A stretch of DNA of 64,000 nucleotides, taken from IMG/VR virus record IMGVR_UViG_3300045988_176431, positions 1 through 64,000 of that record. One strand, 5' to 3'. A model generated the notes under the pieces. It did no database searches and was not told where the DNA came from. It saw only the letters and a list, made by a program, of their open reading frames with translations. This document shows, in pieces, positions 471 through 62,224 of the stretch; position 1 is the stretch's first letter; every line of letters starts with the position of its first letter. Source of the DNA: a virus. The position numbers were made by a program, and so were the translations under genes.

Positions 471-3400
471 AGCTTTTGCTGCACCACCAACAAGTTCTTT
501 ACCTTTATTAATAGCACCTCCAACAAGTTTTTTAGCACCACCAATAAGCCCACCAGAACTAACATCTTTCATCTTTGATGTGTCAATAGCATCTTCATGA
601 ACAAAGCCTAAATCTTTACCATTTTTGCTTTTTACTTGCCATGTACCATCATCATTCTTTGTGTAAGTATTTCCTTTATCATCCTGATATGCTTTATTAC
701 CAACTAAAGCATTTTTTCCTCGATGATATAACCATCCTGCACCTTTTGAAATGGCACCACCTACTTTATCAGAGATACCACCATTTACTCTTGTATTATA
801 AGTATCGAAGTCTTCTTTATCAATTTTATATTTATTAGTTTTTACACCTTCTTTAAAATCTTTATAACTTAGATCTTTACTGATAATCCCAGCCTTTTTC
901 TGTGTTTCATATTGAGCTTTTATTGTTTTATCTTGATCTTTTTCAAAAACTTTTACGAATTTCTTTTGGTTTACTCTCAATTTCTCATAAGATTTACCAC
1001 CATCATTTTTAAAGAAATTATACATAGCACCTAAGATTGTATCTCTTAAGTTTATTGGTTCAAAGAAATCAAGAATAACATCGATTACTGCTCCAATGGT
1101 TGTACCACAACAAAGTCCCCATGCAGCACCAATTAACCTCATAGTCCAGTCAGTATCTTCTTTTGCTACTTTAAATAACTTTGATGCACATGTCGCACCA
1201 TCAATAGCACCACCAAGTGCAAAAACAACTTCACTAAGTCCGGCACTTGCTCCAGCTAAAGCTCCATGTTCTCCAAAAACTTTTGCTAACTTACCACTAA
1301 TCTTAGGAAATTTTTTCTTCAACATTTCGATTATTTGTTTTGGTCCGCATTTACTAAAAAGCTGTTTAATTTTACCTGGTTCTTTTCCAGATTTTTCTGT
1401 AAGTTTTTTAATCAAGTTACTAAAAAATTCTTCGACCATTCCAGCAATTTTTTTAAAGAAACCACCAGAAGCTTTATTATCAGTGGCTTTTTTAGAAAGA
1501 CTCTTTCCTGCATCTTTCATTTTATTAACTATTTTTTTTGCACCTTCGGTTGCTTTACCTTTTACTTCTGTTTTTACAGTATTTTTAAAACTATCCACTT
1601 CGTTTCTTATATTAGTTACGGCTTTTCCTGGCTTTGAATTTTTCACTTTATTTCGTAAAGAATTCTCAGCAGTATCTAATGTATTTCGGACTTTCTGTAC
1701 CTTTTTACCAGCTTTAGATTCAGAAAGAGTTTTCTTTATATTCTTTTTCTTATCACTTTTCCATTTTTTAAATCCTTTTTCATTTTTATTTAATTTAAAA
1801 TCATCATTACCAGGAACAAAAAAATCATCAGCATGTTCTTTAGTCCATCTCTTATTAGATACTCCTTTCATGTTATCCCAATCTTCTTGAGAGATAACTT
1901 TTCGTCCATCTTTAAGAGAATAAGTTTTTGTTTTTTTATCATATACTAAATGATTTTTCTTTGCATCTCTAGTAAATTTTTCATAATCACTAGGTTTTCC
2001 ATGAATTATACGTTTAATTGCTCTACCTGGTGCTTTAATTACTTTCTCAGCACCACGCATTACTTTTTTAGCTTTTTTAGTAGTCTTTGTAAAGCTCTTA
2101 TTATATCTATTATGATAATTTACAATCGTCTTACCTATAAGATTAGTTCGTTCATGAGTACTTCCTGTAGTAGAACCGTCTTCATTTAATCCTAAAGGAT
2201 TTGTTACAATGCCTTTAACATTATCTTTTATTGCTTCAGGTATACTCTTTCCATCTTTTTGAGCACCTATACCATCATTGGTTCCGGATTGATCGATTGT
2301 ATTACCGATAGTCATTCCAAGACCTTTAGCAACACTCTCTAAAATATTTTTCAAAGTTTCCCAAATTCCTGGGAATTTAGCCATAAGTACTAATAAACCA
2401 GCAGTAATAAGACCTTTTTTACTAAAGATATTATCCCAACTTAAGAAATGACTTTTACTCTGTTCATTTCCTTCACCGATTTTATCTTTAATAGCACCAA
2501 ATAACCCTTTATACTCTTTATCTTTTTCTCCCTCTTTCTCAGCTTCTTTTTTCTTTTGCTGAGATTCGAAAGAACCTTCGTTTTTAGCATTTGCTAAATC
2601 AGCAGCATTATCAGCATCAATAATTGCTTCTTTTTTAGCAGAACTATCTTTGATATCATCAACATCTGATGTATCTGCGTTTTCTTTAATTAAATTACCC
2701 TCTTCATCATAGTCTGCATCTGAATTTGCTTTTGTTTTCATAACAGCAATATCATCTGCTTCACTATCATCTTCAGAAGAATTATTTGGACCTCCAACAA
2801 ATGGAATTCCCATTCCGAAGTTTTTCAATCTTCCTTTAATACCGTTAATTCCACCACCAAAACTTGGTGTAGCACCATTAACAGAAGGACCATCGGTTCC
2901 TTTTAATTTACTTATTACACTACTAGCAATACCTTGTACAAATACTTTGATACCATTGCCTTTTTGTGACAGAATTTTACCTTTTGCTTTTGGTGTAAAG
3001 ATTTCTGCGGCACTTGGATCAGATCCACCATCACCAACGAGATATGATTCACCATCATTTACATCTCCACCATTTGCTCTGGCTTTTCCTTTTCTATTAA
3101 AGAAACCTTTTACCTTACCAATTGCATTTTTTGACTTTTCTTTGAAATTGGCAAATGTTTCAGAAGCCTTTCCTTTAATATAATTAATGAAACCACCGGC
3201 TTCTTCAAATTTTTGCTTTAATTCATCAATCTTAGAAATTGCTCCACTTTCTTCATCTTCATTCTCATTATCTTTATCTTCACTATCTTTTTTTTCTTTC
3301 TCATTTTTCTCAGCATCTGAATCACTTTTACCTGATTGATTCATCTTACCTACACCAAAGGCTGGTTTATCACCAGTGAAAAATGATACAAGTCTTTCAA

Positions 3401-49644: not shown

Positions 49645-49862
49645 TGTTAAAAGTTAGTAAAAAATTTGAACTTGATGAACTGAAAACTGTATTGAAAAAT
49701 TATTATAATGAATCAGAGATTTCAGAAATTGAACAAGTATTGGTTGAGAATGATGCATGGTCTGATGGACATATTGTAATCTTATCTGTTACAGCAGCAA
49801 ATGCTCAATATCATGATAAGTTTCGTGTAGTTGCACCTGAAACTTATGATGTATTCTTTTAA
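49641..49862 (+). CDS. hypothetical small protein
   Basis: 73-aa ORF with ATGA overlap to the upstream gene. Confidence 0.65.
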   Translation: MMLKVSKKFELDELKTVLKNYYNESEISEIEQVLVENDAWSDGHIVILSVTAANAQYHDKFRVVAPETYDVFF

Positions 49863-49867
49863 CAAGT

Positions 49868-49908
49868 AAAAAAGAGTAGTGAGAATTTAATCTCACTACT
49901 CTTTTTTT
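49868..49908. terminator. bidirectional terminator
   Basis: aaaaagagtagtgaga atttaa tctcactactcttttt. Confidence 0.75.
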
Positions 49909-49909
49909 A

Positions 49910-51361
49910 TTAATTAATAGGTTCACAATTATCACATACTTCTTCTTTTGGTTCTTCATCATCAGATTCATGCTTTTTTATGTCACCATGAAAAGATGAT
50001 GTTTGTACTTTCTTATTTTTTTGGATAAATTCACTAATGTCTCCAATCTCTTTATCTTTTTTTGAATTTTCGATTTCATCTAAGATCCTTGTGTATTCTT
50101 TTTTCAAATCATCAAGATCCATATCTGTTAATTCTTTTGTAATTGGGTATTTATTCAATTCCAAAGTTTTTAACATAATGGCTCTTTCTTCTTTTTTCTT
50201 TTTCTCGTCACGTTCGATTCTTCTAGGATGATTTGGATGTAAGATATTATCCTTTTCAAATCGTTCTTTATAATCTTCAAAGTAATCTAAGCATTTCTTA
50301 ATTGAATTAATGAATTTTTCTTTATTTGCATCATTATATTTTTCATAAATCAATTTTGAAATGGAAGATACAATTGAGCGTACATAAGAACGGTCTGCAT
50401 CATCATTAATATTGATATAAGCAATAAACCTCATCACAATAAATAAATATAAGTTATTGTATACATGATATTCTTCCGGCAAGTATTTTTCTTCAATATT
50501 AAAGAAGAAACGATATGTGCTAGAATTAAATCCGACCTTTTCAATTTTATTTTTAAATCGTTCAATAATATAAGCACTCTTGTTATTATTGAAGTATGTT
50601 TTAACAATACTTTCTACTTCTTTTGTTCCAAGTTTATCAAGACGTTCCGTGATAAAAGAACCATTAATGATTTTTTCAAGAGCATCAATCTTTTTTTGCA
50701 TCTTATTAATCTCAAAGGTATTCATTTTTTCTTTATCTTCTCTAAGACTAACGATTCTTTCATTTAAACGTTTAAGATTTTCTATCTGTTTTTGTTCATA
50801 TTCTGGAGAGCACATGTAATTAGAATATTCATTTAATACTTTTTCTGTTTCATCTTTTAATTCTTTTACATTATTTTCAGATTCCTCTAAAGAAACAAAA
50901 TCTTCTTTTAATTTTACAAGTACCTCACGAATTAAATTAAATTTTTCTGTAGGATAAACTTCCTCGAAAGGAACTACATCAATTTCTTTCTCATCATAAT
51001 TAGGTAAATTTTCTGGATCTAAATTTTCATCTATTGTATTTTTACTTTCATAATGCTGACTACAAATATCTTTAATCCAGTTTTCATCTGATTCAATATC
51101 TGGAACATTTTTCATATCCATTGGACCAAATGGAATTCTGATTTTTAATAATGCTTCTTCTGCAACGTCATCATCCATTTTTCGAAGTTCTTCTTGTGTA
51201 TAAGCATCAAATAAAAATTTACTACGACCAAAAGAAATATTATCAGCCTCATATGAATTTTTTACAATGTCACGGTAGATATTTAACTGCTCTTCTGCCT
51301 CTTTAACCATATCTACCATAACTTTATAATCCTGATGTGGATTAATCTTTTTCTCTGACAT
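49910..51361 (-). CDS. hypothetical helical/coiled-coil protein downstream of terminase
   Basis: Start 51361 after AAGGAGGA. 483 aa. No portal-like features recognised. Confidence 0.75.
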   Translation of the reverse strand: MSEKKINPHQDYKVMVDMVKEAEEQLNIYRDIVKNSYEADNISFGRSKFLFDAYTQEELRKMDDDVAEEALLKIRIPFGPMDMKNVPDIESDENWIKDICSQHYESKNTIDENLDPENLPNYDEKEIDVVPFEEVYPTEKFNLIREVLVKLKEDFVSLEESENNVKELKDETEKVLNEYSNYMCSPEYEQKQIENLKRLNERIVSLREDKEKMNTFEINKMQKKIDALEKIINGSFITERLDKLGTKEVESIVKTYFNNNKSAYIIERFKNKIEKVGFNSSTYRFFFNIEEKYLPEEYHVYNNLYLFIVMRFIAYININDDADRSYVRSIVSSISKLIYEKYNDANKEKFINSIKKCLDYFEDYKERFEKDNILHPNHPRRIERDEKKKKEERAIMLKTLELNKYPITKELTDMDLDDLKKEYTRILDEIENSKKDKEIGDISEFIQKNKKVQTSSFHGDIKKHESDDEEPKEEVCDNCEPIN

Positions 51362-51424
51362 ATTTTTGTCCTCCTTATTAAAATAAATAATTAAAAAAAT
51401 GTCATAAGGAATATACATAATCAG

Positions 51425-51462
51425 AAAGTAAAAAGAGATGAGAAATATTTCTCATCTCTTTT
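51425..51462 (-). terminator. intrinsic terminator after terminase
   Basis: aaaagagatgagaaat/atttctcatctctttt palindrome, T-rich on the minus strand. Confidence 0.65.
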
Positions 51463-51467
51463 AGTAA

Positions 51468-52757
51468 TTAGAAATTATTTAATGTATTAAATAAATCTAA
51501 GTCTATACTTCCCATGTTTTCATCAGAACCATCAATCATATAATCTGCTGTGTTGTCATAAAGCTCACTATCAATGAGATTTTTCTTATATAACATCATA
51601 GATTCTTTTTGGGATTGAGCAATTGCTTTTCTCAGTTCTTCTGCATACATGTCTTTATTTGCTTCTTTCATCATTGTATCATGAATATCTCTTGCTGCTT
51701 CTGTTGAAATATTCTTTGTATAAGCGTCATCAGGTCTATGCAAACCATCATTATTTGCATTTTCAATAACTTCACCTTTATACAAACCAAAAGTCTCTAA
51801 GTTATCACCATGATAGTATACATATAATCCTATTAAGTATGACATAATAGAGTCATCGTGAAAACCTGCTCCTGCTTCGATTTTTCCACTTGGTTTTTTC
51901 ACAAGTCTTGATAAGTCATCCACAATATTTTGACAAATAAATTTATCTTTAAATTCACTAACATGTCTTGACAATATTGCGAACATTGTTTCACGTGAAT
52001 TTCCTTGTGTATAAACACCATAAAATTTCTTTTTCTGAGCATTATTCTTGAGCATACTTTGTACAGTTTCGTTCGAATGCATTTTTTCTTCTTGTAAATC
52101 TCTTGATTTATCAAAATACAGATTTCCTGCAATTGGACTATACATCAAATGATCAATGATACCATCACCTACGTTATTACGCTCAATACAAATAATAGCA
52201 TTTGGAATATATTGCTCAACTAATTCACGAATTACTAATTCATAAAGGGTTTCACCAATATAAGAACATTTAAATTCAGCAACAGGTTCTACCTTATAAG
52301 GATCAATAATTGTCATTGCATTATTATCTCCAAGAGTACCAGTAGAACAGTCAACACCTACAATATATGGAATTGATTTATCAAATTCTTCGTATATATC
52401 TAATTCATAATATTCTTTCAAATAAACTTTCTTAATCGGTCTCTTACATACATCAATGATGTAATCAATATCTTCACGAGCATATGGAGAATTTCCAGAA
52501 CCTTTCAATCGTTGTAATAAAATCTCACGACGAACAGTTAATGGATCACCAATCTCATTAGCGATATCTCTAAACCATTTTTCATCTTTTCCGATTTGAT
52601 GATAATCATATTCAATATATAAAATATGATTGGAATCATCTGCTTTAATCCAATCAATACATTTTTTATCAGACCAATCATACATTTTTTCAGTCCATGG
52701 TCTTGTTTTTGCTAACAATCTTTGTGCTGCCATTCCTTCAGCAGTATCTAAATCACC
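51468..52757 (-). CDS. terL: terminase large subunit (T4 gp17-like), exon 2 (nuclease half)
   Basis: VGVDCSTGTLGDNNAMTIID and GFHDDSIMSYLIGLY match T4 gp17 LDCSEGRGQDYHALHIID and GYHDDLVMSLVIFGW. The listed TTG 'start' at 52760 lies inside the intron. Confidence 0.8.
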   Translation of the reverse strand, partial: GDLDTAEGMAAQRLLAKTRPWTEKMYDWSDKKCIDWIKADDSNHILYIEYDYHQIGKDEKWFRDIANEIGDPLTVRREILLQRLKGSGNSPYAREDIDYIIDVCKRPIKKVYLKEYYELDIYEEFDKSIPYIVGVDCSTGTLGDNNAMTIIDPYKVEPVAEFKCSYIGETLYELVIRELVEQYIPNAIICIERNNVGDGIIDHLMYSPIAGNLYFDKSRDLQEEKMHSNETVQSMLKNNAQKKKFYGVYTQGNSRETMFAILSRHVSEFKDKFICQNIVDDLSRLVKKPSGKIEAGAGFHDDSIMSYLIGLYVYYHGDNLETFGLYKGEVIENANNDGLHRPDDAYTKNISTEAARDIHDTMMKEANKDMYAEELRKAIAQSQKESMMLYKKNLIDSELYDNTADYMIDGSDENMGSIDLDLFNTLNNF

Positions 52758-53140
52758 CAATTTATTTTATTCATATAAGTTCGTTATACTTATATCTGTT
52801 TTTATACAGCTATACTTCTCAGTATAGATTAGACTATATCTTCATCCTTATATTCTATTACCAAACATAAAGAGCCTACCATTTCGTAAAGCACCAATTT
52901 CGTGCACCCAGACTTCTGGTCTACTCTACTCAGTTATTCATATATAGATTTCTCTATATACTATCCTTTCGATAGTCGTTGAACATTCCTAATTGTTATT
53001 AGGCTTTGCTGCGGATTGTCTCTATCCTTAACGTTTTTACTATATTTTCAATATTAGTAGGTAAGACTTAACGAGAGTTCCCCGCAATTAGATAGGTTTT
53101 CCTTAAAAGTTTATGCAACTTTCTCACGCCCAGTGATTTT
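52758..53140 (-). ncRNA. group I self-splicing intron
   Basis: P1: exon ACGCCU (rc of 53141-53146) pairs with GGGCGU (rc of 53126-53131), with U.G at the junction and a 9-nt loop. Terminal G (rc of 52758). The core is nearly identical to the topoisomerase intron (e.g. gagtagagtagaccagaagtctgggtgcacgaaattggtgctttacgaaatggtaggct). Confidence 0.8.
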
Positions 53141-53977
53141 AGGCGTGCATGTAAATATACGACCATATAATGTATGATTTTTCTTTGATTTTTCTGCGGC
53201 TGTATTAAATGTAGAAACCGAGTTCTGAACAATAACATCAATATGAGATGTAAATTCAGGCTCGTCAAAATGTAATAATGGTGAAGTTAAACCACGGGCT
53301 AAGTTTAATGCCTGTGCATAACTTGTTGCTTTTGCTTTAACGGTAATACTATTTCCTGTCACAGGATGTTGCATACGGGTTGCATTTTTAACCATCTTTG
53401 TAATTTTACCGTCTTCATCCATATAAGATTCAAATCGTAAATATTCAGGTAATATCTCAATTTGTGCAGCGACACGACGTAAATTTTCTTTTGCATTCTC
53501 ACCATCTTTATTTACAAAAATAAAGTTAGAGTTTGAAGTACCAAAAGAATATGCCCATGTTTGTATACACAATGCTGAAACAGTTTTACCTTGCTGACGA
53601 CAAAGACATAACCATGAATCATACCCATGTAATAAACACCAAGCTTGTGCAATATTACCACGATTTGCACGATATGGAACACCATTTTTCATACCAGGCT
53701 CTGGAATTCTTGCTACCTCACGTAGATAATACCAAGGATTCTTTGTACATTCTACCATGATACGTGAAATTTGGTCTTTTGACAAACTTGTTCGTTCTGT
53801 CTTTTCATCTACTTGAAAAGCATCTACATTTGTCAAACTAATATCACATATTTCTAGCATGAAATAAAAGTTTTTTATTCCTACTTTTTTTAAATCAGTA
53901 GCAACTTTTAAAAAACTTTTATTGGCAGTTCCAGTATCATAATACTTTCCATTTATTTTCCTTATTCTATGTGCCAA
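53141..53977 (-). CDS. terL: terminase large subunit, exon 1 (ATPase half)
   Basis: TTG 53977 after AAGGAGG (ORF open to ATG 54049). CRQQGKT (Walker A; T4 SRQLGKT), LLHFDEPEF (Walker B), IFTCTP (motif III; T4 ITTTP). The listed tail KITGREKVA* is intron read-through. Confidence 0.8.
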
Positions 53978-54067
53978 AAAGATTTCCTCCTTTCTTACAT
54001 GAATTAATATACTGTCATGAATGAAAGAAAAAATATCCATTAAAAACATGATTATAAAGAACGTGAG

Positions 54068-54604
54068 GTGAGATTTTTGTATAAAGAAAATAGAAATGAA
54101 TTAAGAAGAATCATACAAAACTACTTAGCAGATAAAAAACCATTAGTAGGGAAAATCAACTTATCTACATTAAAGCAAACAGAAAAACTATTAAAGAAAT
54201 CAAAAAATGATAAAATGATTTCTGTAAATGATGTAATTGGTTATCATCGTATTATGAATACGAAAATGAATGTTATTTATTCAGAAATGTCAAAGGAACA
54301 TAAAAAAAAGATTGATATTTCAATCGCTACAAAAGAAATGAAAGTTATTGATGCTTTTAGACTAGCAATTCATTTAATGAATAAAGATTTTAAAGTTTTA
54401 CTTAGTGAGAAATACTTTGATGAATATAAAAAATACAAAATGTATGGAAAAATAGATACTGATAATATTATCTTTGAAAACTTAAAAGATACAATATCAT
54501 TACGAAAGAAAGTTGTAGAAGCTTATATTTCTTTCGTATATGGTCTATACAAAAAGATTCCAGAATTAATTCGTGAATATCGAAAGGATGTGACAAAATG
54601 TTAG
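54068..54604 (+). CDS. hypothetical protein
   Basis: 178-aa ORF. GAGGTGAG RBS favours TTG 54077 as the start. Confidence 0.7.
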   Translation: MRFLYKENRNELRRIIQNYLADKKPLVGKINLSTLKQTEKLLKKSKNDKMISVNDVIGYHRIMNTKMNVIYSEMSKEHKKKIDISIATKEMKVIDAFRLAIHLMNKDFKVLLSEKYFDEYKKYKMYGKIDTDNIIFENLKDTISLRKKVVEAYISFVYGLYKKIPELIREYRKDVTKC

Positions 54605-55002
54605 TATTTGACAGGTACTTCCGAGCTAAGGTAGATAGTTCGAAGTTTTTATCAAATGAAGTAAAAGAGATGGTTCGAAATGATGATTTTTCGTTGATTC
54701 ATAATCCATATGAAATCAATAAACAGATTGAAACGATTCAACGTCTTTTGAATGGAACTCGTGATTTAACAAAACGTGAACGAGCAATGTTAGAAAGTGG
54801 AATAAAAGAACGAATTCTTTTAATGGAAGAGATTAATAAGAATCGTAAAGAAATGGAAATGGTTGAAGATATTAATAATACGAATTCAACTTCACCAATC
54901 GATATTGCTATCAGTTGTAAAATCAAAGAACAACATTATGATGGATATATTCGAAGAGAACGAGCAGAAGAAATGATTCATCATTTAGATATTAAACCTT
55001 AA
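54598..55002 (+). CDS. hypothetical protein
   Basis: 134-aa ORF overlapping the upstream stop. Confidence 0.7.
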   Translation: MLVFDRYFRAKVDSSKFLSNEVKEMVRNDDFSLIHNPYEINKQIETIQRLLNGTRDLTKRERAMLESGIKERILLMEEINKNRKEMEMVEDINNTNSTSPIDIAISCKIKEQHYDGYIRRERAEEMIHHLDIKP

Positions 55003-55042
55003 AGAAATAGGATACTTTTATGTATCCTATTTCTTATTTTAC
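55003..55042 (+). terminator. intrinsic terminator
   Basis: agaaataggatac ttttat gtatcctatttct followed by a T-rich tail. Confidence 0.7.
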
Positions 55043-55098
55043 GTTTTTATATTCAAAAACACAATTCAATATCAATGAATAAGAGAGGAATGTGTAAT

Positions 55099-56349
55099 AT
55101 GAAATTAACTAACAAATTAAAACCATTTAGAAGTATTACAAATGAATTATTGTCTCCTGTTACAGAATTATCAAATCAGTTATTGAAGGAGTCAATTAGT
55201 AAAAAAATAGAATATGTATTTGAAGAATACGGCACAGATTATAAAATGATACGAAATACAAGATCATCTATCATGTTTAGTACAGATATGGTTGATATTT
55301 ATTTAAAAATATTAGAGTGGATTTATAAATATGATAAAAGAGCGGATATGAACAGGGAATCTATAATTAAATCTTTTGATAATGGTGCAATTAAAAGATT
55401 TCGAATTGGTGCTAATGTTGTAGTAATACATTGTGAATTAACACATGTAGGTATGCATACTAAAAAATTTATAATTGAAATTCTCGGATTACAAGTAGGT
55501 CAGTTATATGAAATAATAACAAGTATCATCAACAAAGAAATTCAAAGAAAAGATGAAAAATATATTAATAATAAATATATAGTCACAGAATTTCGTGTTG
55601 ATATGGCAGCTACTAATGGATTGAATTTAAAAAATGATTTTTCAGATTTGATTTGTCCTGAAAAAGATGATGTTTTAAATAATTTAAATAGATTTTTTGA
55701 GAAAGAAGAACTTTATAAGAATCATAATCTGATATTTAATTATAATATTTTGCTTCACGGTAAACCTGGAACCGGAAAAACTCTTCTTGCAAGAATTATA
55801 TCAGATTACTATGATGCAATTTTATTCACCTTTAATTCAAAAAGTTATATTTATGATTTTTTCAATTTTACGATTTATGATTCTTTTTCACAAGATATTA
55901 GAAAACATAAGAAATTTATTTTCTTATTTGATGAAATTGATATTATTTTAAAAGATACATTGATTGACCCCGTTTCTAAAGCATCTGCAGAATCAGAGAA
56001 TTCAAAATTAGAGACAATTTTAAAAGTATTAGATGGTGAACTATCAGTTCATAATTCTATTACAATTCTTACAACAAATCATATGGAAGATTTGGATGAA
56101 AGAGTTATTCGTTCAGGACGAATTGACTGTGATATTGAAATGAAAGATTTGTCATATGAATATGCTCTTAAGATATTAGAAAAATTTGATGTAGACCCAG
56201 GTAAGTATTTTGAAATATTATCATTTTATATAAAAGAAGATAAATCTGATTCAACAAAGGAAAATATTACTGAAAAAGTAATAAAGAAATGGAAATATAA
56301 TCCATCCAAATTAGAATCAATTATTTTACATCATTTATTAAGAAACTAA
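55099..56349 (+). CDS. AAA+ ATPase
   Basis: LLHGKPGTGKTLLA (Walker A), FIFLFDEIDII (Walker B), ILTTNH (sensor 1), RSGRID (Arg finger region). Confidence 0.75.
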   Translation: MKLTNKLKPFRSITNELLSPVTELSNQLLKESISKKIEYVFEEYGTDYKMIRNTRSSIMFSTDMVDIYLKILEWIYKYDKRADMNRESIIKSFDNGAIKRFRIGANVVVIHCELTHVGMHTKKFIIEILGLQVGQLYEIITSIINKEIQRKDEKYINNKYIVTEFRVDMAATNGLNLKNDFSDLICPEKDDVLNNLNRFFEKEELYKNHNLIFNYNILLHGKPGTGKTLLARIISDYYDAILFTFNSKSYIYDFFNFTIYDSFSQDIRKHKKFIFLFDEIDIILKDTLIDPVSKASAESENSKLETILKVLDGELSVHNSITILTTNHMEDLDERVIRSGRIDCDIEMKDLSYEYALKILEKFDVDPGKYFEILSFYIKEDKSDSTKENITEKVIKKWKYNPSKLESIILHHLLRN

Positions 56350-57836: not shown

Positions 57837-57924
57837 TGATATATACAGAAATACGATTTTCAATTCTAAATAACTGAGAAAACAAAGATATAACGTAATT
57901 GAAATATGAAAGTAGGTGAAAAAT

Positions 57925-60900
57925 ATGTACTTTGTAAACGATTTACCTTATTTAAAAGCAGTTCGTAAAAAAGCTTTTTTGCCAAAGGGTCAACCGATAT
58001 CACAAGGTAATTTAATTTTTCTATTTTCACCATCGATTGAAAAATCATTTGAAATGATCAATGATGAGACAACTGTCCCAAATGGTGGAAAATATTTTTG
58101 GTATTTTTATAACTTATTATATCGAGGAACCATTTATGGAAAACGATATCTTTATCGTGATATGAAAGAAAGACTTGCGATATATAAGCGAGTACCAAAA
58201 GAAACAAATATACGTTCTTATGCAACTAAACCAATTATTAGTGGTACAGAAAAAAGAAACACATATTATGAATTAGCTAGATATTATGAAATATTTAATC
58301 AATATTCAAGTAAATTAAATGCAGTAAAATTGGTTGATTGTTTTTGGAAATACTTTACTCCTATCTTTAAAGATCAATATGGATATTTAGATCATAAATA
58401 TGTCTTAATTAATGCAAATAACTTTAAAGATTTTAAAGGGGATAAATTAAGAGACCAGTTAAATAATCCTTTGTTTTTGATTTATTATACTTTGTGGAAA
58501 CAATTTGATTTGATTGCTGAGTTGGATATTGATTTCATTATTTATGCAAATGGAAAAATCATGAGATTTAACCCATCTAAATGTGATGAAAAATCTTATC
58601 GAATATATCTTAGAGAATTAAAAAAGATATATTCAGTTGCTACAGTTCCAATTGAGACAATTGCTGAAGAAGAAATTAATACTGAGGAAGAAGAAAAAGA
58701 AGAGGAACCGAGAGTAAAGTTTAAATCAGAAAAAATGTCTGTTACTAAAAAAACAGCATTACCAATTGTAGATAAAATTACGGCGGTAGCAACAAAATTG
58801 TCAGCATCTTCAAAAAAGAAGATTGAACAAAAGGTAATTCATAAAGTTTCTTCTGTATCATCTACTATGAATGTCGATAAGATAAAAGATGATGAAAAGA
58901 AAAAAGAGGTTGTAAAAGAAATTCAAAAGAAAGTAGAAGATGAAATTAATACAGATGAAGATGTGATTAAAGAAGTATATAATACAATGCAAAAAGAATT
59001 TGTACCAAAATCAACTTCACGTTCTACTGCTAGAGATAATCTTTTACGAGAAGAACAGAAGAAGTTGAATATCAAAGGTTCAACTTTAAAATCTATTGAA
59101 AAACAAAAAGATGTTGATATTGAAACAACAGATATTACTCAGAATGTAAAAAGCACAAATGAGAATACAAAAATAATCAAGTTTAATAACTTTAATAAAA
59201 CTTATAACGATAAGCTTTTAAATAAAGATATTATGGATTGCTTTACTCAATTGAATAATAAGTCAATTAAGATGTTTATCCGAAATGTCGATATAGAAGA
59301 TACTTCAGATGAATTGAATTATAAAGAAACTTGGACGGTTAAGTTAGAGGATGAAAACAGAAATCGTCATACAATAAAAGTAGATATTCCTAAATTCTTA
59401 GAGTATAAATTTTTATGGCTCGGTGGTAATAGAAAGAATATAAAGAATCAGATGTTCTTTTTACCATTTGTAAAGATTGATAAAGACCGTGTTCTTATTG
59501 TATCTAATTATAATAAGTTTACAATTCAACGAGTGGATACAAAGTCTTTAAGGGGTCTTTCTCGAATTGAAACATTTATTCAGAAATCAGATTCTTTTAA
59601 AGATTACTTTATTTCAGGTAATACTTTCTTTGAAAATAAAGATTTTATTACAGCAATTGAATATGATGAATTTGGAAAGAGTTTTCGTAAATTCCATAAA
59701 TCTCAAACAACGATTTACTTCAGTCAGGTAGAAGCAAAGCATGAGATGGAAAAGAAAATGATAAAGATTAAATCAAATGAAATGTTCATTGGTTTTGAAA
59801 AGGGTGAACCACTTATCCTTAATATTAAAACACAGAAAGATAAAAAGAATCGTGGTATTGTCGATATCATTTTAGATACGATGGATGAAACTCAATTAAA
59901 AGAGTATAAATCTATTAAAACGCCAAAACGGTTGATGCATACTCAGATTACAACAATGAAACAGGATTGTCCACTTATTATCATGCTTTGTATTTGGGAA
60001 GGACTTAGTACGGTATTAAAGAAAGCAAAGATTAAATATCGTTTAGGTGCAAGCATTCGTGATATGAAAGTAAACGAAGATTATATTCGTTTCAAGAATT
60101 GCTATTTGATTTATGAAGATGATATTGAATCTGAATTATTAATCAATGGATTGAAGTTATTAGATACTGCTTCACATGATATTGGTGAATATGAGACACA
60201 AGAAGTTTATCTTCCATATGTTGAAAGGAAATATGGTAGAATAAACGCTATTAATACATTAAATAATGCTTATGAATTTATGCTAGGTTCAATTGAAATA
60301 TCTTTATTAAAAGATATGAATCTTCCAACGGATATTGTATCTCTTTGTATTCATGCAAATGAAGTACTCTGTGATAATCAATACGACAATGAGTTAGTTC
60401 AAACACATTCTCGTATTCGTTGTAATGAAATTATTCCTGCAATTCTTTATGATAAGATTGCAAAAGCTTATACACCATTTAAGAACTCAAATGGTAAAAA
60501 GAAATTATCAATTCCACAAGATTGTGTCATTAAAGAAATTTTAAAGCAAAAAACAGTAGAAGATTATGATTCATTAAATCCTTTATTGGAACTTGAAACG
60601 AATCATGGTGTATCAACAAAAGGATTTCGTGGAATTAATTTGGAGCAGTCTTATAGTGTTCCAAAACGTTGTTATGATGATAGTATGATTGGTGTTATAG
60701 GACCATCTTCATCTCCAGATGGAAATGTAGGTGTAAATCGTTCTCTTACGATGGAACCAAATATTAAAACAGCAAGGGGATATGTAGAAGTAAAGAAAGA
60801 TAATTTGAATGAGGTAAAAGATGTTAATCTTTTCTCTCCAGCAGAACTTTTAATTCCTCTTGGTGTAACACGAGATGATCCAGTTCGAACTGGACATAGT

Positions 60901-61872
60901 GTAAAACAGTCTCGTCATACAATTCCTGTTGTAAAATCTTCACCTGTCCTTATTTCAAATGGTTCAGATGAAATGTGTAAATATTACTTATCTTCTGATT
61001 TTGTTGTAAATGCAAAAATGGATGGTAAAGTAGTTGAAAATGACCCTTCAACAAAAATTATGGTTGTTGAATATAAGGATGGAACTCATCAAGCAATTGA
61101 TTTAGGAAAGAAACTTGCAAAAAATGGTGGTGGAGGTTTTGAATTATCAAATCAATTAATCACAAACTTAACCGTTGGTTCCAGATTTAAAAAGAATGAT
61201 ACACTTGCATGGCATAAAAATTTCTTTAAAAACGATAAATACCAAGGAACACGTTTATGTGTTGGTACATTAGCGAAAGTAGCAATAACTTCTTCTTATA
61301 ATACTTATGAAGATGGTACTTTTGTGACACATGGATTTTCAGAAAAAGCAACAACTGAAATGTGTTTTAAAAAACCTGTCGTAATTGGAAGACACTCAAA
61401 TGTATCTCAGATGGTATCAGTTGGTCAATCAATTAATACTGGTGACCCATTGATTCAGTTTGATGACTCTTTTGAAGAAGCCAATATTAACGTTCTTCTT
61501 AATTCACTTGGTGATAATGAAGAATTAAAGGATGCCGTTATTTCGAATAATAGAAATATTGTAAAATCGAAATATTCTGGTGTAATAGAAGAGATTAAAA
61601 TGTATTCTACAGCAGATTTAGAAGATTTGTCTCCGAGTTTACAAAAAATCTTTAAAAGATATTATGATAAGATAAATAATAGAAAGAAAGTATTGAAAAA
61701 ATACAATGAAAAAGATGGAATTGTGTATTGTGGAATGATGATTAATGAACCTACTGGTAAAGTAGAACCAAATCGTTATGGAACAATACGTGGTGAGAAA
61801 GTAAATGATGGTGTGTTAATTGAGTTTTATATTAAACATCAGGAACCACTAGAAGTTGGTTCCAAAATCGCT
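57925..61872 (+). CDS. multisubunit-RNA-polymerase beta-like subunit, exon 1
   Basis: ATG after AGGTGA. GFRGINLEQSY..RCYDDSMIGVIGPSSSPDGNVGVNRSL aligns with beta RDVH.SHYGR.CPIETPEG.NIGLI.SL. DDPVRTGHSVKQSRHTIPV aligns with DDANRALMGSNMQRQAVP. Ends EVGSKIA, aligning with GDKMA. About 700 aa at the N-terminus have no recognisable similarity. Confidence 0.75.
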
Positions 61873-62224
61873 TAAAGTTAGGTGATTTAAAACTTACCTA
61901 ATTGCGGGAAACTCTCGTTAAGTTCTAGTTACTAACTTATGATAGTAATATACATAAGGGCAAGGGGTAACTCCTAAGGTATAGTAAAAAAACTAGAAAT
62001 AGAGACAATCGACGCAGGGAAGTATCTCTTATGAGATATGGCTTCAACGACTATCGAAAGGATAATATATAGAGAAATCTATATATGAATAACTGAGTAG
62101 AGTAGACCAGTTAATCTGGGTGTACGTTATTGGTACTTTACGAAACGGTAAGTGTTATAAATATGGTAATAGTATTTATAATAAAGATATAGTCTATTCT
62201 ATATAGTGATATATAGTATTAAAG
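61873..62224 (+). ncRNA. group I self-splicing intron (ORF-less)
   Basis: P1: exon UCGCU (61868-61872) pairs with GGUGA (61881-61885), with U.G at 61872. Begins with in-frame TAA and ends in G at 62224. Shares the core with the two other copies. GNRA-capped hairpin ctatata gtga tatatag at 62199-62216. Confidence 0.75.

Follow-up and report, generated by a model that had tools for sequence, protein, structure and literature searches.

The window analysed here is a 64,000-nt stretch of viral DNA (the 64-kb window below). It carries two minus-strand open reading frames (ORFs), 53111..54049 and 51468..52760, and the question is whether these ORFs encode two proteins or are the parts of one large terminase gene (terL) that is interrupted by an intron. 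A preliminary description, made from the sequence without database searches, had named both ORFs, and both were present in the ORF list as given there; it had also proposed a group I intron in the large terminase gene directly after ATPase motif III. On the evidence set out below, we hold it to be highly probable that positions 53140..52758 on the minus strand are a 383-nt, ORF-less group I intron in terL of a ~250-kb AR9/phiKZ-like jumbo phage, the exact boundaries included. The family membership of the element, its pairings and their covariation, the exact indel boundary and the restored reading frame were observed directly.

The phage has a genome of about 250 kb with a G+C content of 29%, and the genes neighbouring terL include those for a 1319-aa RNA polymerase beta-like subunit, an AAA ATPase, a primase and a Dda-like helicase. 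The 1319-aa protein (window 57916-61875, plus strand) matched phage RNA polymerase beta-subunit families with an E-value of 2.5e-128, and the presence of this beta-like subunit indicates that the phage is, as AR9 and phiKZ are, a jumbo phage that encodes a multisubunit RNA polymerase. Just downstream of terL, the ORF 49910..51418 (minus strand) encodes an acidic, Lys/Glu-rich protein of 502 aa with no PHROG match. In relatives L005-L007, which are 88% identical, terL is likewise followed by an ORF of similar size (473-483 aa), and the downstream ORF is possibly a conserved partner. Additionally, a palindromic hairpin of ~55 nt lies at window 49860-49915; it extends over the stop codon at the 3' end of this downstream ORF and may be the terminator of that ORF. 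On both strands the hairpin gave a weak, sub-threshold match to a microRNA model.

The terL region was divided into the following parts.

53141..53977, minus strand: terL exon 1, 279 codons, with a TTG start after AGGAGG and with Walker A (RQQGKT), Walker B (HFDEPEF) and motif III (TCT); homologues start alike (MxxRIxRIxGKxYD).
52758..53140, minus strand: group I intron, 383 nt, own ORF absent; identified from the RF00028 match, its exact absence in the allele L008 and covariation over nine same-site introns.
52758..52758, minus strand: terminal G (omega G), with the 3' splice site after it; from direct reading of the sequence, relatives and the comparison with L008.
51468..52757, minus strand: terL exon 2, 429 codons plus stop, with the remaining ATPase domain and an RNase H-like nuclease (VDCSTG, ERN, GFHDD); from the ORF, the alignment and the T4 gp17 profile comparison.

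Direct reading of 51300-54200 on the minus strand showed that exon 1 ends in ACA UGC ACG CCU at 53141 and is followed, from 53140, by AAAAUCACUGGGCGUG; the intron ends in AAAUUG at 52758, in agreement with the terminal G proposed earlier, and is followed by GGU GAU UUA GAU of exon 2. Joining 53141 to 52757 gave the open frame that had been foreseen, which extends over 708 aa from the TTG at 53977, reads GRIFTCTP↓GDLDTAEG at the junction (the arrow marks the insertion site here and below) and contains the tryptic junction peptide IFTCTPGDLDTAEGMAAQR. Without splicing, translation would yield only a 288-aa fragment because of an in-frame UAA at intron nt 28-30. In particular, the tail KITGREKVA and the stop that closes the first ORF are intron nt 1-30, and the TTG at 52760-52758, with which the second ORF apparently starts, is formed by the final three intron bases, both as the preliminary description had it. 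An intein was ruled out by the same UAA and by the length of the insert, as 383 nt is not a multiple of 3; a group II intron was ruled out by the lack of an Rfam match.

Sequence comparisons supported the view that the two ORFs are one terL, which would encode a 708-aa T4 gp17-like large terminase once spliced. PHROG 'terminase large subunit' families matched the spliced protein with E-values of 1e-41 and 2e-33, and a profile of the spliced protein and 12 homologues matched the T4 gp17 structures 3CPE/3EZK with an E-value of 1e-8, placing VDCSTG opposite LDCSEG and GFHDD opposite GYHDD. The hhalign comparison to T4 gp17 (96% probability, E 2e-9) aligned RQQGKT with SRQLGKT (Walker A), HFDEPEF with YIDECAF (Walker B) and, in motif III, IFTCTPGDL with IITTTPNGL, where TTT corresponds to T4 residues 285-287 and TTTP to T4 residues 285-288. 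The PHROG matches and the hhalign result thus bore out the earlier assignment of both ORFs to one T4 gp17-like enzyme. The intron lies between Pro279 and Gly280, one codon past the motif III triad, and the junction aligns to T4 gp17 residue 288/289. Exon 2 therefore starts inside the ATPase domain (T4 gp17 residue 289), and the ORFs are not clean halves; the earlier division into an 'ATPase half' and a 'nuclease half' was correct in that Walker A, Walker B and motif III lie in exon 1 and the nuclease in exon 2, but part of the ATPase domain lies in exon 2 as well.

A Pfam-A search of the spliced TerL gave no family at E ≤ 0.01; this TerL clade lies outside Pfam coverage despite hundreds of metagenomic homologues and a clear gp17-like identity. 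We found 579 homologues, and among the 120 listed nearly all were uninterrupted proteins of 703-757 aa with 99-100% query coverage and up to 88% identity. In an alignment of 12 full-length homologues, the junction was gap-free and T278, P279, D281 and L282 were invariant. The best cultured TerL relatives were jumbo phages with 30-34% identity, namely Bacillus phages BpSp and AR9/PBS1 and Staphylococcus phages S6, PALS_2 and Madawaska. A megablast search of 51300-54200 against 50,697 phage records returned zero matches, which indicates that a close cultured relative is absent.

The inserted element is a group I intron, as evident from its RF00028 score, P1, P10, the omega G, a P3-P8 core with a P3/P7 pseudoknot and the restored frame. 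The covariance-model search that the preliminary description had suggested revealed a match to Rfam family RF00028 (group I intron) at 52810..53150 (minus strand) that covers the whole model (positions 1-253) with 86.2 bits and an E-value of 1.5e-20, the curated gathering threshold being 50 bits. RF00028 was the sole RNA family to reach its curated threshold in the 64-kb window. A permissive-E-value Rfam scan of the whole window gave no second intron, and the mir-71, CsrC and ncr1015 matches obtained across the window were below threshold and were taken as chance. The minimum free energy (MFE) z-score of the 383-nt RNA was -4.3, and none of 100 dinucleotide shuffles folded as well. The elements of the structure are listed below, in the order of the RNA except for the exon strand of P10, which is placed beside its partner.

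53141..53147, minus strand: P1 exon strand CACGCCU, with the 5' splice site after U53141; exon third-codon positions covary with the guide in relatives.
53132..53139, minus strand: P10 intron strand AAAUCACU (intron nt 2-9), just 5' of the guide; its partner is nt 1-8 of exon 2.
52750..52757, minus strand: P10 exon-2 strand GGUGAUUU; from pairing and the relatives' alignment.
53125..53131, minus strand: internal guide sequence GGGCGUG, the P1 intron strand (intron nt 10-16); from pairing and the relatives' alignment.
53105..53123, minus strand: P2 hairpin (intron nt 18-36); from Rfam and the fold, weakly conserved, 54% paired in relatives.
53091..53096, minus strand: P3 5' strand CCUAUC (intron nt 45-50), partner 52875..52880; 100% paired in relatives, with 4 of 6 pairs compensatory.
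53009..53087, minus strand: P4 (UUGCGGG/UCCGCAG) around P5 and a P5 extension with a GAAA-type loop (intron nt 54-132); P4 98% paired.
52988..53003, minus strand: P6 hairpin (intron nt 138-153); 82% paired, with compensatory changes.
52972..52977, minus strand: P7 5' strand GACUAU (intron nt 164-169) in the conserved GUUCAACGACUA element; invariant and 100% paired in 9 sequences.
52881..52971, minus strand: peripheral region between P7 and P3', with predicted P7.1/P7.2 hairpins and conserved GAGUAGAGUA; from fold and alignment.
52875..52880, minus strand: P3 3' strand GGUAGG (intron nt 261-266); from fold and alignment.
52845..52873, minus strand: P8 hairpin (intron nt 268-296); 69% paired, 4 compensatory pairs.
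52832..52837, minus strand: P7 3' strand AUAGUC (intron nt 304-309) in the conserved GAAGAUAUAGUCUAA element; from fold and alignment.
52773..52827, minus strand: P9 (intron nt 314-331), P9.1 (332-345) and P9.2 (346-368); P9 100% paired, with 4 compensatory pairs.

The preliminary description had paired exon ACGCCU with GGGCGU 9 nt downstream (intron nt 10-15), with U.G at the junction. We found this pairing as described, and its full extent is 7 bp (CACGCCU/GGGCGUG, with U53141.G); it was 96% paired in relatives, where a G-C to C-G switch was observed. P10, which was absent from that description, comprises 8 bp (GGUGAUUU/AAAUCACU) and was 81% paired in relatives, with 4 pairs altered on both sides. 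P3, P4, P6, P7 and P9 all pair fully in the window intron, and P4 contains a G-C pair in the window intron where all 8 relatives have U-A. The MFE fold favours a competitor of P7, a local hairpin at intron nt 166-180; this hairpin was set aside, as its 3' strand is unconserved in relatives and P7 is invariant. The 52 nt from the end of the Rfam match to the 3' splice site form two more hairpins, P9.1 and P9.2, the former of which is poorly supported (39% paired in relatives). In the 91-nt region between P7 and P3', hairpins are predicted and GAGUAGAGUA is conserved, a layout typical of subgroup IA, to which the intron probably belongs.

For the covariation analysis, nine ORF-less same-site introns, including those of the window and AR9 intron 4, were aligned over the conserved core. 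On this alignment, 80.9% of cells were paired, compared with 39-47% when the partners were slid by 1-3 columns; the scored structure was written from the window sequence, itself in the alignment, which biases the proportion of cells paired in its favour, and the counts of compensatory changes are independent of that. A total of 30 pairs were altered on both sides, and the covariation score was 0.22, compared with 0.05-0.09 for the slid structures, with none of 500 shuffles as high as observed. Compensatory changes among the 8 relatives and the window intron were present in P1, P3, P4, P6, P9 and P10.

A near-identical allele without the intron was found at locus L008 (IMG/VR IMGVR_UViG_3300045988_176405), which has 97-100% DNA identity to the window over 51569-55477 and from which exactly 53140..52758 is missing. 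The intron-less site sequence is ACACCA↓GGAGATCTC. The junction flanks are ACG CCT↓GGT GAT TTA in the window and ACA CCA↓GGA GAT CTC in L008, and the differences are all synonymous. In the first 1730 coding nt, the two alleles showed 26 differences, 5 of which lie within 13 nt of the junction, and over residues 1-577 the proteins share 99% identity. It is the flank variants of the window that permit the U.G pair, P1 and P10. These clustered synonymous changes would fit co-conversion of the flanks during homing or selection for intron-exon pairing, two explanations that are not separable here.

The terL of L008 contains an insertion of its own. A group I-like intron of 1207 nt (L008 3231-4437), with a 263-aa HNH_3 gene, lies in the nuclease GFHDD codons (GGG U↓UU CAC); the corresponding site in the window (~51863/51864) is uninterrupted. 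Synonymous differences between the window and L008 were also found just upstream of this GFHDD intron. The window and L008 are thus near-identical genomes with reciprocal terL intron sets.

We considered whether the terminase could be truly split, in which case the 312-aa and 430-aa ORFs would be translated apart into a two-piece enzyme and the intron would be an inactive relic. The gene callers do give a separate 430-aa 3' ORF, including the source annotation, where it is a 'hypothetical protein' (P0005) from a 254-kb contig, and a TTG is present at 52760. We judge a split enzyme to be very improbable, however, as this TTG consists of the final three bases of an element whose group I core, P1 and P10 are intact and which ends in G, and no Shine-Dalgarno-like motif was seen before 52760 on direct reading. 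Moreover, the break falls one codon past the catalytic motif III triad within a contiguous ATPase fold, the exon flanks are tuned for intron pairing, and nearly all homologues among the 120 listed are single chains.

There is likewise very little chance that the intron is real but has lost splicing, so that the genome would be defective or mis-assembled and its terL a pseudogene. The endonuclease gene is absent, as expected late in the homing cycle, and P2 and P9.1 are weakly supported; against this, the conserved core elements are all intact, both exons are open, the five junction differences from L008 are all synonymous in a protein that is 99% identical over residues 1-577, and terL is essential. 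Splicing at boundaries other than 53141/52757, for instance with the 3' site after G52810, is extremely improbable: the Rfam model ends at 52810 (GUAUAG), 52 nt short of the proposed 3' splice site, but ligation of 52810/52809 meets a stop codon after 12 codons, for which reason this site was rejected, whereas 52758/52757 is the only boundary to restore the conserved TP↓GDLD, is the indel boundary relative to L008 and is backed by the 8-bp P10, and the extra 52 nt are the P9.1/P9.2 region found in relatives too.

For the preferred reading, that of a functional intron at 53140..52758, splicing, catalysis and their timing in the window phage are inferred to be as follows. The terL gene would be transcribed as a single pre-mRNA, in which the intron would fold into its P3-P9 core. 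The guide GGGCGUG would pair with the last seven bases of exon 1 to form P1, with U.G at the cleavage site, and free guanosine would attack after U53141. The adjacent AAAUCACU would pair with the first eight bases of exon 2 to form P10, and the terminal G52758 would then be used in exon ligation. The ligated product would encode the 708-aa TerL, with FTCTP↓GDLD in the motif III region. The intron is a member of a family found at the same codon boundary in many related phages, and some introns of that family carry an HNH homing endonuclease.

The preliminary description had taken introns in terminase genes to be uncommon. This view is outdated, given the five pieces of the AR9/PBS1 terL, the interrupted terL of many related loci and the terL introns published in several phage groups. 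We found that terL was interrupted in 27 of the 80 related IMG/VR loci (L008-L087), in some two or three times, a count made after the removal of three loci with a separate weak upstream extra match; in many of the interrupted loci, group I introns were confirmed by Rfam. The breaks fall into clusters: at Walker A (query residue ~128), at Walker B (~234-238), at motif III (276-280, 19 loci) and at the nuclease GFHDD Asp motif (577/579, 9 loci). At least five points, all of them at catalytic motifs, have been used repeatedly for insertion in this clade.

Exactly at Pro279↓Gly280, 14 introns were found, including that of the window. Introns at the identical codon boundary are present in IMG/VR loci L053, L056, L057, L058, L062-L064, L066, L068, L070 and L078 and in Staphylococcus phage PALS_2, and they share the P1/P10 logic of the window intron, their guides covarying with the exons. 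In particular, the guide sequences track the synonymous exon state (ACG/CGU, ACC/GGU, ACA/UGU; UGC/UGU with G/A). Pro279 is encoded by CCT in each of the 14 intron-bearing alleles examined, compared with 24 of 42 intron-less alleles. The introns nearest to that of the window are those of L070 and L053, with 73-80% identity over segments. PALS_2 has a 1.5-kb insert at the same place with a 366-aa ORF that gave weak, sub-threshold Pfam matches, whereas the window intron is ORF-less. Exact-pattern scans found no copy of a 48-nt intron core stretch in viral contigs and no copy of a 31-nt peripheral intron stretch in metagenome contigs.

Some loci of the clade differ in detail at motif III. The same-site introns of L058 (1060-1315), L066 (2587-2836) and L078 (2332-2598) apparently end in A (AAAUA↓GGU or AAUUA↓GGU) if the TP↓GD frame is restored; when the site is moved by one base, the frame is broken or Gly is changed to Ser. 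L052 (2595-3179) has two group I introns at motif III with 8 nt between them, in the order ACGU, intron 2595-2872, micro-exon GUACGCCU (2873-2880), intron 2881-3179 and GGAGAU. L049 and L054 contain only the upstream motif III site, which lies within the Cys277 codon (U↓GY).

An intron at exactly TP↓GD is already annotated in related phages, and the window intron is an ordinary further example. The terL of AR9 (GenBank KU878088, AR9_g121) is annotated as a join of five pieces; we identified four group I introns by Rfam and mapped the fourth between LITTTP and NDLD, so that this comparison combines the GenBank annotation with a mapping made in this analysis. Intron 4 of the AR9/PBS1 terL has the same insertion codon as the window intron (LITTTP↓NDLD compared with IFTCTP↓GDLD), and AR9 TerL belongs to the same jumbo-phage family, with 34% identity. 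It scored 83 bits with RF00028, is likewise ORF-less, is 310 nt long compared with 383 nt, and aligns with the window intron at AAUUGC.GG, GACAAUC.GCAG, GUUCAACGACUAUCGAAA, GAGUAGAGUA and GAAGAUAUAGUCU. The likeness is confined to the conserved core, close DNA identity being absent. Additionally, the AR9 terL contains three further introns, whereas that of the window contains one, and AR9 intron 4 has U-A in P4 where the window intron has G-C and is without the peripheral P5 and P7.2 extensions of the latter.

The introns of T4 td, nrdB and nrdD (sunY) are the standard phage group I introns and belong to subgroup IA2. They share the mechanism and core elements of the window intron and likewise lie at the conserved catalytic site of an essential DNA-metabolism enzyme, although the host gene differs. 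The T4 nrdB intron is without a functional endonuclease gene, as is the window intron. Among introns within large terminase genes, splicing in vitro and in vivo has been demonstrated for those of Bastillevirinae such as SIOphi (PMC11878797), and I-MsaI is encoded by the terL intron of Twort-like staphylococcal phages, in one of which full-length TerL was detected by mass spectrometry (PMC5618024). Like the window intron, these introns belong to group I and interrupt the large terminase gene in large Firmicute myophages; they differ from it in terminase family and insertion site and usually encode an endonuclease. The Jug phages of the human gut are, like the window phage, metagenomic jumbo phages with terL introns; their group I introns split terL into 2-3 fragments, metatranscriptome reads confirm splicing, and the introns average ~206 nt (PMC12880540), compared with 383 nt here. 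The preference of group I introns for conserved catalytic residues is textbook knowledge (PMC12908238).

The window intron contains no homing endonuclease ORF, only the read-through of the exon frame. In contrast, the larger same-site introns of L053, L057 and L068 encode HNH_3/NUMOD4 proteins that are mutually 45-66% identical, and the HNH ORF of L053 is apparently placed where the window intron has its P6 loop. A tblastn search of the 64-kb window with four intron-encoded HNH proteins revealed no homologue of the HNH catalytic region; the sole match was weak (E 0.002) and was to the non-catalytic C-terminal part of the L008 HNH protein. In the standard homing cycle, an endonuclease-bearing intron invades and the endonuclease gene is then lost, or the intron is mobilised in trans. 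The most likely origin of the window intron is homing driven by an endonuclease, with the flanks co-converted, and its endonuclease gene was lost or was never present, this route of mobility being our conjecture.

The reciprocal intron sets of the window and L008, together with the insertion points at catalytic motifs, prompted a further reading, which we put forward tentatively and think rather unlikely. The ORF-less intron might be active in intron warfare among co-circulating jumbo phages, with its co-converted flanks protecting terL from the HNH endonucleases of relatives. If this were true, those HNH endonucleases could also move the intron in trans, and the outcome of co-infection would be affected. 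The endonuclease of an RNA polymerase gene intron in PhiPA3 reportedly acts against PhiKZ and affects the outcome of co-infection.

The window intron leaves the current understanding of such introns unchanged and adds one more case of a phage group I intron at the most conserved catalytic codons of a DNA-metabolism enzyme. For annotation, the 5' ORF with its false C-terminal tail and the 3' 'hypothetical protein' would be one essential 708-aa terL product, and terL phylogenies and clustering would be better based on the spliced product. The window and L008 form a near-isogenic pair that may be used to examine intron gain and loss, and the co-conversion of flanks, in uncultivated jumbo phages.
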